Below, in pieces: positions 22,031-58,019 of a stretch of DNA of 64,000 nucleotides. The first letter of the stretch is position 1. Every line of letters starts with the position of its first letter. The stretch spans positions 1 through 64,000 of IMG/VR virus record IMGVR_UViG_3300028603_000025; one strand, given 5' to 3'. Under the pieces are notes generated by a model, which saw only the letters and a list, made by a program, of their open reading frames with translations, made no database searches and was not told the DNA's origin. The translations under genes were made by a program, and so were the position numbers. This stretch comes from a virus. Its lineage: Duplodnaviria > Caudoviricetes.

Positions 22031-23365
22031 TTAAATTGATGGGTTAAATAATGAGTCTTTGATAATTTCGATATGGCACGTGTGTCTCAGCCTGTTTATG
22101 TTATGACGAATTGCAGTAATCAGATAGTTGCCTGAATACATCGTATCCAGATTCGTATCTGATTTGCTTTCTACTCCTCCTGAAGGATATTTCAAGGTAA
22201 GCATTCCGCCTACTTCAATATCTGTTCTTCCGGGAATAGTTGCATGTAACTTCATATTACTCAGTTCAAGAAGAGAACTTCTCCGGTTCGGATACTTGTC
22301 CTTCATGCGCTGGTCAACGTTATCATTAAAGTTATTGTACAATGCCTGGTTGCGAACCCTGAAGTCTTGAAAGTAACCTGGGTTCCGTATTCCTTCTTTC
22401 ATGAACAAGGGAATCGATTTAATCCCGTCCCCGCTGGTATGATACTGGTTCTGATATTCTTCAGTATAATCGTAGGCGATAATGTCGTATCTTCTGTTAT
22501 GTACGTCTACGTCAATCACCGACGAAGATAGATATCCGTTTGAATGGTTCTTAATCTGGTCAAGGTTTTCCATGATTCTGATGTCAGAAATAATGAACTT
22601 CTCACGATTATGGTCAAGCGTCCCTTGTTCGTTATAGATGCCGGATACCGTGGGCGTATACGTCCCGATACTCCTTTCCTGACCTTCCTTCATCAGATAT
22701 TCCACGGAACCAAAGTAAAAACACTTGTTTGATTCCCAGAACAGATATGAGCACGCGGTCTCGTTCTTGGGTATAGACTTTGATGCAAGCCAGTTAATAT
22801 TCTTGAAAGGAGTCCATCCGGGAGAGACGTATTTGACTTTATTCTCTACCTCGTTCAGGATGGCCATAGGAGTAATCCTGTCTATTTCTTTAAGCCTCGA
22901 GCCGTTACTCTCTACTTCGTATTCACGGTTCGTGGAAATGAAATTCAGATAGATATCCTCGACCACGTCCTGAATCATGCCGGAAAACGGAAGATACAAC
23001 GGCAACGAGATATCATGGAATAATTCGATTGATGCAAAGTGAAGCACATAGGACTGGGTGTTAGTATCTCGAACGATAACCCTGTCTGAAATCTTATATA
23101 TCCGGAATGTCTTTTCGATGACCGAAGTGAAAGAAGGTGTTTTAATCTTCACGAATAGATATTCGTCTCCCACCAGAGGAAGCTTATCAATCAGGCCACG
23201 GGAGTCCGAAATCATTATCTGCCCACTCAGCGTATTTGAGAACAAGTCCTCGTAGATATTAATCTCAACTAAAAAATCAATCAAATCAATGATTTGATTG
23301 GTCGACGAAACAAGCATCAACCTGTTTATCTCAACGTCATGCGCAGACTGTACTGAATTATTCAT
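22031..23365 (-). CDS. Baseplate hub protein, gp27-like
   Basis: EINIYEDLFSNTLSG...LPLVGDE, YLFWES and YSGNYLITAIRH motifs. Confidence 0.7.
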   Translation of the reverse strand: MNNSVQSAHDVEINRLMLVSSTNQIIDLIDFLVEINIYEDLFSNTLSGQIMISDSRGLIDKLPLVGDEYLFVKIKTPSFTSVIEKTFRIYKISDRVIVRDTNTQSYVLHFASIELFHDISLPLYLPFSGMIQDVVEDIYLNFISTNREYEVESNGSRLKEIDRITPMAILNEVENKVKYVSPGWTPFKNINWLASKSIPKNETACSYLFWESNKCFYFGSVEYLMKEGQERSIGTYTPTVSGIYNEQGTLDHNREKFIISDIRIMENLDQIKNHSNGYLSSSVIDVDVHNRRYDIIAYDYTEEYQNQYHTSGDGIKSIPLFMKEGIRNPGYFQDFRVRNQALYNNFNDNVDQRMKDKYPNRRSSLLELSNMKLHATIPGRTDIEVGGMLTLKYPSGGVESKSDTNLDTMYSGNYLITAIRHNINRLRHTCHIEIIKDSLFNPSI

Positions 23366-23789
23366 TAATATTCAAAGACTTATTATAAATCTCAATCGCT
23401 TCCTTAGGAATAGAACAATCATTCTCCTTGGTAATCACAATCGGAACCTGTTCTCTAAGAACCCTGTTTCGAGTAATCACCTTCTCAATTGGAACCTCGA
23501 TATATTCCTTCTCTATGCGGATGTTAACGACCTCCGACTTTTCCTTCAGAATCTCCATCCTATGTTCCAGTTCTGTAACCTTCTGGTTCCACGAATCATT
23601 AACACTCCGGAAGGTAAGAAGATAGACGCACAATGAAATAATCACGATTCCTACCGGCATGATGAAATAACCGTACTTCCCGATAAACGGAATCCCCTTG
23701 ACAACGTCAGAGCCAATCAGGATAATAATAGTAATACCGAAAGCGATAACAATGGCCCAGGTAGGAATAAGATGAAGTAATAAGTCCAT
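23358..23789 (-). CDS. Rz-like inner-membrane spanin candidate
   Basis: N-terminal TMDs, coiled coil and C-terminal VPIVIT...DCSIP...IYN pattern; minus-strand CATAAATA at ~23818-23825. Confidence 0.6.
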   Translation of the reverse strand: MDLLLHLIPTWAIVIAFGITIIILIGSDVVKGIPFIGKYGYFIMPVGIVIISLCVYLLTFRSVNDSWNQKVTELEHRMEILKEKSEVVNIRIEKEYIEVPIEKVITRNRVLREQVPIVITKENDCSIPKEAIEIYNKSLNINE

Positions 23790-23841
23790 GATTGGAAAGC
23801 CGAATAAGTAATATAACTATTTATGAAAAAGGAAAATCACA

Positions 23842-24087
23842 ATGAATTATGTAAGCAGAAACAAAGACTTAATATCGAAATACGAATCGGAAGGCTGGAG
23901 ACTCTCTGATGCAACCAAATCAAGGCGTCGCGCCCTGAAAAAGGAAGTAGAACGCCATCTCAAACTAAGTAGAGAAACCCTTAATTATCTTGAACGGGAT
24001 AAGTCATCAATTTATCACCAGTTACAAACAGTGATGATGGAAATGGATAGAATTCCTGGCTCAGAATGGACTTGGATAGAGGAATAA
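23842..24087 (+). CDS. Hypothetical protein
   Basis: ORF with AAGGA RBS; no recognisable motif. Confidence 0.6.
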   Translation: MNYVSRNKDLISKYESEGWRLSDATKSRRRALKKEVERHLKLSRETLNYLERDKSSIYHQLQTVMMEMDRIPGSEWTWIEE

Positions 24088-24150
24088 ATGTCTCGTTTTT
24101 TCGTTCTTAGAAGAAATGGGACTATCATGTAGACTCAGACCTCTTTACGT

Positions 24151-24190
24151 CTCTTGCTATCAGAGGACGAATTCCTTCAGATAGCAAGAG
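24151..24190 (+). other. Strong hairpin with an 11-bp perfect outer stem
   Basis: ctcttgctatc...gatagcaagag. Confidence 0.7.
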
Positions 24191-24225
24191 CATAGATTTC
24201 CTTCCATAATTCAACAGAAAATTAG

Positions 24226-24253
24226 TTGAACTTAGTTTTTGATTTGGTATCAT
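24226..24253 (+). promoter_or_regulatory. Promoter TTGAAC-N16-TATCAT with extended -10 TG
   Basis: Same architecture as 49856-49883; lies directly upstream of the structured non-coding block. Confidence 0.55.
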
Positions 24254-24259
24254 ACTAAT

Positions 24260-25100
24260 ACTCTCCATGACAATTTAAGGGGAGATGACCAAAAGAGCTG
24301 ACAAGGTTTTTTTGGTCCGCTGGCCACGTAATGGCAGGCTCGTGTTCATATGGAGGTTGGTTATTCCTCTCCGGGCAAATAGATAACTGGGCACCCGTAT
24401 AAAGTTAAAATCCGTGGGTTAGCCGGTTCAGACAGAAAATGTCTGTTCTAAAGAAAGTCGATAAAGTATATGACACGTAGCTAATAACAATAGTGTCCGA
24501 GAGGAATCGACTTTCCTGAATAATCAAGACTAACACAGAAAACGTGTTGATGGTAACCAATAGCGAAACATTGCTCCAAATAACGGTATTTACCTCCGCT
24601 TAAGCCCTGCGGAGAAGGATGTGTGACGCCATCCTTAGAAAACGACCTCTCCCATTGTGACGCAAGGCAGTTTCGGGGAAGCATTTTAGTCGATGTTTTC
24701 CTCCGGGTTCTGAAAAAACCGGTCGATAATAAAAGAGTTGGGACTCCCCTAAATCAACGGGGCACATGGCAACTCTAGGTCAGAGGAAGCTTGACAAACT
24801 TCCAAGAGCTTGAGGAAAGATACGTCATATCATATCTTGAAATTGGTCCTCATCGAAGCCAAGTGTTTACTTAAAGGTTATCTTAAGAGAACACTAAGAT
24901 AAAACAAGAACAAAATGGACGCTCGTCGTTCATACGATATAGGTTTTGATTGCCATAAAGCACTGATAAGCTCCTATCAAATGGCCGTCAGAAGATACAG
25001 GATTTCAACAGTAATTCTTCTCACAAAATCAAAATACCTGAAGAAAGAAGCTTGCGTGGATAGAGCACGCGGTAGTAACAGCATTCTTCGTTGAGTTTTA
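24260..25100 (+). ncRNA. Candidate large (~850 nt) highly structured non-coding RNA
   Basis: No credible ORF; more than 12 consecutive or nested stems, several needing G-U pairs that work only on the + strand; upstream promoter. Confidence 0.65.
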
Positions 25101-25327
25101 ATTTAGTGTTTTCATGACTTGAGTACGTAACAGGCTGTTAAGAATCAGGTACAGAATCGGTATAAACCAGTTTAGTACACTAGAGTATTACTAGTCAGTT
25201 ATAGTACGCTAAGACCAGCCCAGTAGGTTTTGGGTTTTGGTTTAAAAGCATTAAAGTCTTATGATAATTTAACGGGTATTCACATGGCGGGCTAAAACTA
25301 TGTCTAAAATAAAGTAACAGAATATTC

Positions 25328-25356
25328 TTGACATAGCTTCGAAGTGTACGTATAAT
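25328..25356 (+). promoter_or_regulatory. Consensus sigma70 early promoter TTGACA-N17-TATAAT
   Basis: Perfect consensus. Confidence 0.9.
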
Positions 25357-25395
25357 ACAAACCATCGAAACAACGAACACAGCCCAGAAGGATTT

Positions 25396-25692
25396 ATGAA
25401 CATGAACGCAACCGCCGCCGAAATGAACGTAACCAACCTTAAAACCGCCGTCGAAATAAAAATTGAAATTGAATTGGTCGCTTGGGCCAACGGCGAAAAG
25501 AAATTTAACGTTTCTAACCAATTCGACGAAAGCGTTTTGGAATCGGCGAAAGAAGCAATTTCCGTTGAAGCAATCGCCGCAATTGTTGCCAAGTATCCGG
25601 GCGCGAACTTCGAAGGCTTTTCGGTTATGACTTGGGCGCACGAACTTTCGGCTTTCAAAGCCCCGGAAATCGACCGCGCTTGGTTCTATTGA
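25396..25692 (+). CDS. Hypothetical early protein
   Basis: AAGGA RBS; directly after the perfect early promoter. Confidence 0.75.
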   Translation: MNMNATAAEMNVTNLKTAVEIKIEIELVAWANGEKKFNVSNQFDESVLESAKEAISVEAIAAIVAKYPGANFEGFSVMTWAHELSAFKAPEIDRAWFY

Positions 25693-25717
25693 TTAACTTA
25701 AAAATATCGGGAATTAG

Positions 25718-25924
25718 ATGAGAAGAGTATATAAAAAACCGGATTATCAATTTTCAAAATTGGGGAATGTAGACGGATTTCACGCTGAAATATTCAATGA
25801 CGACACTTATATTTTTATTGAAGATGAACTCGGCAATCCCATCCCATCAAATACTTGTATATGTTGTGCTACTTATGAAGATGATTGTATATGCGGAGGA
25901 TGTCAAAAACCTGTTGATAATTAG
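25718..25924 (+). CDS. Small Cys-rich hypothetical protein
   Basis: CICCA...CICGGC cluster. Confidence 0.55.
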   Translation: MRRVYKKPDYQFSKLGNVDGFHAEIFNDDTYIFIEDELGNPIPSNTCICCATYEDDCICGGCQKPVDN

Positions 25925-26021
25925 AAATCGACATGTCGATTGTATTCAAATGAAAAAGAAGTGTGTTTTGTGGCCTGTGAATAAAGTATCCAAAACGTGT
26001 AACCATTTTAACGGAACTCAA

Positions 26022-26720
26022 ATGATTAAACATGATAAATTTACCTTTTCCCCTCGCTCATTTGAAGAAGAACGAGGAGTTGATGCCGCTTACATCATTA
26101 CACTCCCCGGAAACAAGATTTCAGAGAAATTGACAGACCGAGCAGTCGAATCATGTAGAGCCGTGGATATGAACTATCGAGTCTGGGAAGGAATAGACGG
26201 AACAGGAGAAGATATCCTTATTCCGGGAAATTATTCTTGGATTCCTTGGCACTTGTTTCGAGTTCCTAGCAACGTATACTCGAATTCACAGGTAGCCTGT
26301 TTCCTTTCTCATCTATCCTTATGGGTCCATTGCGTTCAGTACGGAAAGCCTATCGTTATCCTTGAACACGATGCAGTGATGCTTAAGAAAATCGAACACG
26401 CAAAGTTCTATAACTCTATCCAGTTCCTTGGTTGCTACGAGCAGGGAACTGGAGCAATGCCACAAATTCCGTTCATTCCTCCTCATGCGTCCATATTCGA
26501 TGGCTCGTGGAGAAGTATCTGTCGAGCACATGCTTATCTTATCGACGTTGCGGTAGCAAGACAATTGATAGCAGAAGTAATCAAATACGGAATGATAAAG
26601 ACCTTGGATATCTTCATTCGGGCAGATATCTTCTCAATCGTTCAGGATGGAATCTATGCATACGACTTACGCGGAACCAGTACTATATCCGAACTCAACG
26701 GAAACGAAAAAGATGCGTAA
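26022..26720 (+). CDS. Glycosyltransferase, GT25 (Lex2A/LgtB-like)
   Basis: YIITL, EGIDG, ACFLSHLSLW, ILEHDA and AHAYLI motifs; ATG 26022 preferred as start. Confidence 0.8.
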   Translation: MIKHDKFTFSPRSFEEERGVDAAYIITLPGNKISEKLTDRAVESCRAVDMNYRVWEGIDGTGEDILIPGNYSWIPWHLFRVPSNVYSNSQVACFLSHLSLWVHCVQYGKPIVILEHDAVMLKKIEHAKFYNSIQFLGCYEQGTGAMPQIPFIPPHASIFDGSWRSICRAHAYLIDVAVARQLIAEVIKYGMIKTLDIFIRADIFSIVQDGIYAYDLRGTSTISELNGNEKDA

Positions 26721-39331: not shown

Positions 39332-39848
39332 TACCAAGAGACGTTTCTTTATTGACCTTGACCATACGGTCGCAGACTTTAACGGAACGTTTCTATCTCA
39401 TTTCGGAAAAGGGCTATCTGAGTCTGGGCTGTATATGACGAACGAAGACTGGGATTTAGTTAACTCAGAGAAGAATTTCTATCTCAGGTTAACTAAATTC
39501 GAATACGCGGATGAACTGGTATCCGAAATCGTTGATATGTTTGGTTATGACCGAGTCTTCTTTCTAACCTCAAGTCCTCCTGAATACGAAGGCAATGCTT
39601 ATCAGGATAAGGTTCTCTGGGTAAGGAATAATATCCGGTTCAATCTTCCGGTAGTATTCAACAATCAGAATTTCGGAAAGGGTATGTTTGTCGAGAACGG
39701 AATCAATGATATACTGTTGGACGATAAACAGAAATGCATTCTGGACTGGAGAAGCCAGGGCGGAACCGGTATTCTGTTTGAGCAGAATATGGGATATGAT
39801 TTATCATGGTTAAGATGTTTTGATTACAGGAGTCTTACGAATGAGTGA
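39324..39848 (+). CDS. 5'(3')-deoxyribonucleotidase-like HAD phosphatase
   Basis: IDLDHTVADF (DxD), DKVLWV, LLDD and GGTGI. Confidence 0.8.
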   Translation: MLDTKRRFFIDLDHTVADFNGTFLSHFGKGLSESGLYMTNEDWDLVNSEKNFYLRLTKFEYADELVSEIVDMFGYDRVFFLTSSPPEYEGNAYQDKVLWVRNNIRFNLPVVFNNQNFGKGMFVENGINDILLDDKQKCILDWRSQGGTGILFEQNMGYDLSWLRCFDYRSLTNE

Positions 39849-40602
39849 TAAGAAGCTTACCGTGGTTATTCCGACCACGTTATCTCCTGACGTATATGAT
39901 TTACTGGATAACCTGAAAGGAAACGTTCCTGACCAGACTCTGATTTATCTGGTGATAGATGGTCAGGAACACCTTGACGAAGATTCAAAGATAAAGATAG
40001 CGTCGGCCCGAGCCAGATTTCAGGAACGGAACGGAGTTGAATTATATGAGATAGTTCTTCCTTTCTCTATCGGGAAGGGAGGATGGTACGGTCATAGAGC
40101 AATAGCAGGCTTTGCTCATATGATAAATACTCCGTATGTTACGTTCATTGACCAGGATAACTTGGTTGATGCGTTTCATTTCGTGACTCTTTTAGAACTG
40201 CTTGAGAAATACGAAGACCTTCCGTTTGCTTATTCTCATCGAACCATCATCGATAAACAGGGCCGTGACATATGTCTTGACGAATGTGAATCGTTGGGAT
40301 ATAAGCCTATCATGGGTAATGAACAGAACGGCTATCTGGTTGATACCTCGTCGTGGGTATATAGAAGACAGTTCATTGAACAGAACGGACATATCTGGCA
40401 CCATGGGTGGGGAGCAGACCGAAGGTTTACTATGGCAGTTCGTAATGGGGTCGGTCCAGAAATGATGGAGAAAGCATGTACCAAACTCCCGTCATTATTA
40501 TACAGGGTAGCAGGAAACGCAAATTCAGTGACCCCTGAATTCTTTATAACCGGAAACTCAAAAATTAAACTTCTGGAGAACAAAAATGTCAGTCCTGATT
40601 AG
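39841..40602 (+). CDS. GT2-like glycosyltransferase
   Basis: TVVIPT, VIDG, FIDQDN, VDTS and WGADR. Confidence 0.8.
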   Translation: MSDKKLTVVIPTTLSPDVYDLLDNLKGNVPDQTLIYLVIDGQEHLDEDSKIKIASARARFQERNGVELYEIVLPFSIGKGGWYGHRAIAGFAHMINTPYVTFIDQDNLVDAFHFVTLLELLEKYEDLPFAYSHRTIIDKQGRDICLDECESLGYKPIMGNEQNGYLVDTSSWVYRRQFIEQNGHIWHHGWGADRRFTMAVRNGVGPEMMEKACTKLPSLLYRVAGNANSVTPEFFITGNSKIKLLENKNVSPD

Positions 40603-57947: not shown

Positions 57948-57976
57948 TTGACAAACCTTCGAATCGTACGTATAAT
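57948..57976 (+). promoter_or_regulatory. Consensus sigma70 early promoter TTGACA-N17-TATAAT
   Basis: Perfect consensus; spacer resembles that of the 25328 promoter. Confidence 0.9.
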
Positions 57977-58019
57977 TTAAACAATCGATAACAAACAAAG
58001 AATGATTAAGGAGATAGAA

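Follow-up and report, generated by a model that had tools for sequence, protein, structure and literature searches.

The window, by which we mean the whole stretch of DNA analysed here, covers the first 64 kb of an IMG/VR record that is 98.9 kb long, with an estimated completeness of 59%. The contig is gene-dense and T4-like, with recognisable tail, head-closure and replication genes. Its 444-aa tail protein shares no more than 28% identity with cultured phages and no more than 48% with other viral contigs. By protein identity, the phage is an uncultured T4-like virus far from any isolate. DNA sequencing runs containing the stretch come from landfill, sludge and unspecified metagenomes.

Between about 24088 and 25395, all three kinds of stop codon occur in each of the six frames (20-31 stops per frame), which rules out stop-codon recoding, and the longest stop-free run is 273 nt. 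This is the sole gap of more than 300 nt without an ORF of at least 70 aa in the 98.9-kb contig, in agreement with a sequence-only reading of the window that had found no credible ORF in 1.3 kb. The same reading had proposed a TTGAAC-N16-TGnTATCAT promoter and a series of stems; the promoter was found, as TTGAAC-16-TG-g-TATCAT at 24226-24253, and every stem is present in the sequence where it had been placed. The span originally proposed, 24260-25100, is noncoding but too short: the unit extends from 24218 to about 25320, with a predicted transcript from about 24260 to 25245. Its parts are listed here together with changes seen in variant contigs (L068-L071) and in a contig from metagenome run X5.

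24151..24190, + strand: stem-loop of 14 bp, inverted repeat I2, after an 81-aa ORF; left recombination joint
24218..24253, + strand: sigma70-type promoter with extended -10, TTGAAC-16-TGgTATCAT at 24226-24253; left border of the module
24260..25245, + strand: predicted ncRNA of ~985 nt, its start taken from promoter geometry and its end from the terminator
24348..24400, + strand: hairpin of 15 bp with two compensatory double changes
24453..24515, + strand: helix of 10 bp, gaaagtcgat/atcgactttc, enclosing a 5-bp helix at 24472-24497
24562..24575, + strand: small hairpin, which a 14-nt deletion in L070 removes with near-exact ends
24644..24781, + strand: multibranch domain (ggggaagcat/atgttttcct, ccgggtt/aaccgg, agagttg/caactct); RNAalifold consensus, covariance model R1
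24817..24838, + strand: hairpin with one compensatory change, 24824/24831 GC>AU in L070
25053..25071, + strand: hairpin gcgtg/cacgc with one compensatory change, 25055/25069 CG>UA in L069
25212..25245, + strand: intrinsic terminator, hairpin AGCCCA...TGGGTT followed by the T run TTTTGGTTT
25246..25320, + strand: 3' tail of the cassette, reaching the right joint; variants and the X5 contig end or take insertions at 25316-25321

Within the window, the arm of the stem-loop and the 32-nt promoter are both single-copy, and the promoter is nearly invariant across all variants. The predicted transcript opens with a hairpin at +2; the terminator-like hairpin and its T run occupy 25217-25245, and a weak promoter-like site lies at 25241-25268.

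Several comparisons show that the stretch is genuinely noncoding. Of the 40 indels in the alignment of variants, only four have a length divisible by 3 and 36 do not. A gene caller places just one ORF in the cassette (59 aa, 24915-25094); its frame is shifted in L069 and L070, and a search of 5.8 billion clusters gave no relative of it. ORF sets vary between variants and no ORF is conserved. Ten stop-free segments of the cassette matched nothing in Pfam or PHROG at E<=1, and a decayed gene was rejected as the origin of the stretch on this result. The locus could still encode several very small proteins in a row (micro-ORFs below 35 aa) rather than an RNA, since tiny genes abound in the early regions of T4-like phages and several SD-like purine runs lie upstream of short ORFs, for example GGAGAAGG followed by an ATG at 24620. 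The frames of these candidates are not kept, however: one-base indels in the variants strike the 33-aa, 13-aa and 59-aa candidate ORFs, and gene calling on the variants gave no common product within the cassette. We consider micro-ORFs a very improbable explanation.

Variants and borders of the cassette

We assembled a comparative set from contigs of the neighbour-protein clusters, an exact-word scan of JGI metagenomes and metagenome run contigs. Identity to the window cassette is 99.1% in L071, 95.8% in L068 (a comparison that reaches only to 24769), 91.5% in L070 and 89.7% in L069; these four variants underlie the structural and covariation comparisons, and runs X2-X5 hold further ones. The variants were assembled separately, from landfill, sludge and other metagenomes.

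The same 1.1-kb unit is present in L071, L068, L070, L069 and runs X2-X5. On the left it ends at 24190, 24206 or 24218 and on the right at 25316-25321, with breaks at these positions in L066, L069, L070, L071, X3 and X5. The X3 and X5 run contigs break at 24218, and in the X5 contig both flanks of the unit are unrelated to those of the window. In L066 and L070, homology to the window stops exactly at 24190, where their HNH genes begin, and both carry an HNH-AP2 homing endonuclease gene between the 24151-24190 stem-loop and the promoter. L070 and L071 have a paralogous HNH-AP2 gene (67-68% identical) between 25320 and 25350. In L069, a different, GC-rich terminator hairpin takes the place of the 24151-24190 stem-loop ahead of the same promoter. 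Because the unit is kept while the sequence outside its borders differs, 24218-25320 is a discrete cassette and not a mere gap; on this comparative evidence it is a self-contained, protein-free cassette with its own promoter and predicted terminator.

The endonuclease genes form a group of three paralogous, free-standing HNH_3 plus AP2-type genes (L066:1358-1813; L070:500-997 and 2183-2683; L071:571-1092), with insertion points at 24190/24206 and 25320/25350 in window coordinates. Differences from the window cluster within 100-170 nt of each insertion, as co-conversion tracts predict. Further to the right, the X3 and X4 contigs skip exactly 90 nt at 25930-26021, so that relatives have an in-frame deletion within the window's ORF at 25797-26720.

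The sister phage L067 is 83% identical to the window in both flanks (23013-24089 and 26031-26699), and the window's cassette is absent from it. Between the flanks it has other genes and its own ORF-free stretch of ~0.9-1 kb (L067:1458-2477). Only the 43-nt promoter is significantly similar between L067 and the window cassette. In L067 this promoter is inverted and directed into the ORF-free stretch; it lies at 2401-2374 on the minus strand, back to back with a + strand promoter. This ORF-free stretch folds with z of about -4.4 on both strands, has no Rfam or tRNA match and no match in phages or viral contigs, and its body is not alignable with that of the window cassette. By sequence comparison, then, two related phages carry unrelated kilobase-long ORF-free cargo behind one promoter.

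Searches for the cassette elsewhere returned only close relatives. The neighbouring 81-aa and 143-aa proteins fall in only three or five near-identical clusters. No cassette homolog was found by nhmmer against 63 related loci, by BLAST and covariance model R1 searches of L067 and of the full length of 28 related viral records, or by blastn against the phage collection, where the sole match was the neighbouring cassette. Exact cassette patterns were found in no viral or genome contigs, and an exact-pattern scan of metagenome contigs recovered only L071 and L072 (identical with L070), both of this lineage. Within the collections searched, the cassette is known only from one narrow uncultured T4-like lineage.

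The DNA immediately to the right has a different distribution. The segment 25328-25698 comprises a consensus TTGACA-17-TATAAT promoter, unlike that of the cassette, and a 98-aa ORF (phrog_22782, unknown function), and its DNA is 90-97% identical to that of Kakheti25/PaMx10-group siphophages of Pseudomonas, Stenotrophomonas, Pseudoxanthomonas and Variovorax. Nowhere else does the contig match an isolate at the DNA level. A second copy of the promoter at 25328 lies at 57948-57994, and contig depth over 25328-25698 triples in run X2. The segment has the look of a promiscuous moron that unrelated phages have exchanged in recent times.

The central 600 nt of the cassette differ from L069 and L070 by 1-6%, whereas the flanking genes differ by 11-17% at their third codon positions. 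L071 equals the window up to 25155 and is then ~10% different beside its endonuclease gene; in L070, divergence peaks over the first 100 nt, beside its left endonuclease gene. Low central divergence fits purifying selection, and could also stem from mosaic recombination or endonuclease co-conversion. We treat the constraint argument as weak because co-conversion tracts of homing endonucleases can give the same mosaic pattern.

The cassette might carry nonfunctional filler, the decayed or scrambled cargo of a shuffling unit such as the wreck of small early genes, which would have persisted through its young age and repeated copying by recombination and endonuclease-driven gene conversion. The narrow distribution and mosaic identity patterns are in keeping with this explanation, as is the hyperplastic locus, where the sister phage carries unrelated sequence. 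Yet filler accounts poorly for an intact, conserved promoter and terminator, for a unit that is whole in at least five variants from separate assemblies while its flanks change, for the lack of any protein remnant in any frame, and for the rest of a contig that tolerates no other gap of more than 300 nt. We think filler unlikely, and return to its bearing on the stems below.

Folding, covariation and strand

We compared folding energies with dinucleotide shuffles on both strands. The span 24260-25100 gave z of -4.07 (+) and -2.65 (-), and the full predicted transcript (24260-25245; 60 shuffles) gave -4.33 (+) and -3.41 (-), so the region outfolds shuffled controls. The sequence-only reading had described it as packed with stems, and that description needs tempering: against 100 native 986-nt windows of the genome, the region ranks fourth after adjustment for GC, only -1.6 SD, and is thus moderately exceptional. 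Comparable folding is seen in coding windows of this genome; one of 986 nt, at contig 39441-40426 with an average G+C (0.42), reaches -302 kcal/mol compared with -283 for the candidate RNA. Because the native-window rank is only fourth, at -1.6 SD, fold energy alone is weak evidence, and this modest excess is what would be expected of filler, whose stems would be no more than any 1-kb sequence gives.

Compensatory change was scored by folding one sequence alone and then placing the substitutions of another on that fold. Comparisons yielded 2-5 compensatory doubles where 0.5-1.1 were expected, also when shuffling was confined to 60-nt bins, with P of 0.001-0.1 in most comparisons and zero doubles in one. 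Six or seven such doubles were found in all, in local hairpins and the terminator. The 15-bp hairpin at 24348-24400 shows UA>CG at 24362/24385 (UG in L069) and UA>AU at 24364/24383; the helix at 24453-24515 shows AU>GC at 24461/24507 in L068, and the helix that it encloses CG>UA at 24474/24495 in L069. The terminator stem AGCCCA/TGGGTT is rebuilt as GGCC...GGCC in L069, and a G-U pair in it becomes A-U in L071. The multibranch domain at 24644-24781 is almost invariant, and its pairs therefore carry no covariation information; its closing pair is broken in L069 and L070.

Within the 5' domain, pair counting gave four double-change pairs compared with 0-1 in slid controls, and the local-hairpin fold had a covariation score of 0.101 compared with 0.078 in shuffles, a value reached by 6 of 500 shuffles. 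An alternative, long-range fold derived from the window gave no covariation signal. Covariation among homologs thus bears out the proposed RNA in part, through the compensatory doubles, within a comparison of four variants and with one fold devoid of signal. Since all four are ~90% or more identical, power is low, and we regard the covariation evidence as suggestive, not proof. For filler, the weak covariation under one fold is what would be expected, whereas the excess of compensatory doubles over permutation nulls is not.

Strand is identified by the promoter and the predicted terminator, which are conserved and both face +, and not by G-U pairs. The sequence-only reading had taken stems with G-U pairs as pointing to a + strand RNA; this argument did not survive comparison, for changed pairs were kept canonical in 37% of cases on the + strand and 38% on the - strand when all choices of reference were summed, and G-U and A-C patterns showed no preference for the + strand. 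A functional RNA from the minus strand would also fit the ability of that strand to outfold shuffles (z -3.41), and in helices derived from the window, variant pairs stayed canonical more often on the minus strand (51%) than on the plus strand (30%). That asymmetry is gone, however, once every sequence serves as reference, and at the right end we found neither a minus-strand promoter nor, further to the right, a minus-strand gene from which transcription could read through. A minus-strand product seems to us highly improbable, and a large + strand ncRNA is, on the signals and comparisons available, the best reading of the locus.

A candidate RNA class and its relation to known systems

We see about an even chance that the cassette encodes an early-expressed, structured ncRNA of a new family, carried in a mobile promoter-to-terminator unit. 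Host sigma70 RNA polymerase would start at ~24260 from the extended -10 promoter early in infection and produce an RNA of ~985 nt with a 5' hairpin and ~20 mostly local helices, including one multibranch domain. Transcription would end at the intrinsic terminator at 25212-25245. The product would work at the RNA level, probably in trans, with a role in host takeover or counter-defence. A search for antisense targets in the phage's own genome gave only chance 12-14-mers. A sponge of the CsrA/Rsm type was rejected, as GGA motifs are not enriched (12 compared with 16 expected).

A larger claim, which we put forward tentatively and think rather doubtful, is that the cassette is the founding member of an undescribed class of ~1-kb structured phage RNAs, in a lineage that trades promoter-bounded 'RNA morons' whose spread homing endonucleases drive. 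If so, the unrelated 0.9-kb ORF-free cassette behind the same promoter in L067 would be a second RNA class. A new large ncRNA bounded by a promoter and a terminator in a T4-type genome would be experimentally tractable, since the whole cassette can be transplanted or removed in one piece. The comparison also shows that the modular shuffling and homing endonucleases of T4-type phages can act on noncoding cargo. Unrelated ORF-free cassettes behind one promoter in two related phages hint that phage annotation under-counts accessory modules made of RNA only.

Known RNA families do not account for the cassette. Rfam cmscan of the window at gathering thresholds gave no hits, the GOLLD and ROOL models included; at E<=10 the region gave only a chance MAT2A_C match outside the cassette body, and variants L069 and L070 gave only chance matches at E<=5. 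No tRNA, tmRNA, RNase P or group I or II intron model matched, and ARAGORN found no tRNA in the window, the whole 98.9-kb contig (59% complete), L067 or L069-L071, and no tmRNA. The earlier statement that the stretch has no tRNA, tmRNA or RNase P hallmarks agrees with these searches.

A function at the level of DNA would take one of two forms, an R-loop-type origin primed by the promoter's transcript or a conserved target and co-conversion tract of the neighbouring HNH endonucleases. The transcript is purine-rich (A 350 and G 236 of 1071), relatives have HNH-AP2 genes at both borders with divergence concentrated beside them, and compensated helices would form in DNA too. An endonuclease target, however, needs tens of bases and not 1.1 kb. 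The origin, which the sequence-only reading had offered as an origin-priming RNA, lacks the hallmarks seen in T4. The MotA box has the consensus TGCTT; the -35 region of the cassette reads AGTTGAACTTAG, a sigma70 -35 of TTGAAC without a TGCTT box, and the G+C of 24300-24399 is 0.51 compared with ~0.41 for the genome, which leaves no A+T-rich unwinding element. The T4 R-loop origins oriF and oriG span ~100 bp and combine a middle promoter having a MotA box at -30 with an A+T-rich unwinding element (PMC3016281). The cassette resembles them in having a promoter with an untranslated transcript; it differs in lacking both of those elements, in being ten times longer and in being closed by a terminator, and the region has no iterons or direct repeats. 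We judge a DNA-level element improbable.

To our knowledge, there are few large phage ncRNAs of the kind of GOLLD and ROOL, and no function is known for any of them. GOLLD and ROOL are often associated with tRNA genes in phage or prophage DNA. Both are large, ornate ncRNAs found often in phages and prophages (PMC12286853). The cassette is like them in being phage-borne and ORF-free, several hundred to ~1000 nt long and rich in helices. Unlike them, it has no covariance-model match even at E<=10 and no tRNA genes on its contig, and its supported helices are local, with no sign of an intricate long-range or oligomeric architecture. The proposal of a large phage ncRNA in the GOLLD/ROOL size class, possibly of a new class, thus holds as the best reading of a noncoding, promoter-led stretch, and the cassette is neither GOLLD nor ROOL.

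In its organisation the cassette is closer to the PeSL cassettes of T4-type phages, in which a stem-loop or terminator is followed by a strong sigma70-like early promoter and cargo, with breakpoints between close relatives at these signals (PMC2839356, PMC4122927). Here the stem-loop at 24151-24190 is the stem-loop half of a PeSL-like element and lies 36 nt upstream of the promoter at 24226-24253, with another terminator hairpin in L069; homology breakpoints fall at 24190, 24206, 24218 and 25316-25321, within a region that is hyperplastic. Comparison thus places the cassette at a PeSL-like joint, where its relatives swap stem-loops, gain HNH-AP2 genes on either side or, in the sister lineage, have unrelated ORF-free cargo. 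It differs in that its cargo is 1 kb of noncoding sequence in place of the small ORFs of PeSL cassettes, and in that its stem-loop and promoter are single-copy in the window and not a dispersed motif family.

A further parallel is the T4 region of tRNAs and stable RNAs (rnaC, rnaD), with which the homing endonuclease SegB is reportedly associated in work by Brok-Volchanskaya in 2008 (title cited in PMC4122927). The cassette differs from that region in having no tRNA or tRNA-like element and in apparently giving a single long transcript, where the T4 region has an array of small RNAs. The two share an RNA-only block of ~1 kb in a T4-type genome with free-standing homing endonucleases adjoining it, and as with SegB, the adjoining endonuclease genes would favour inheritance of the block.
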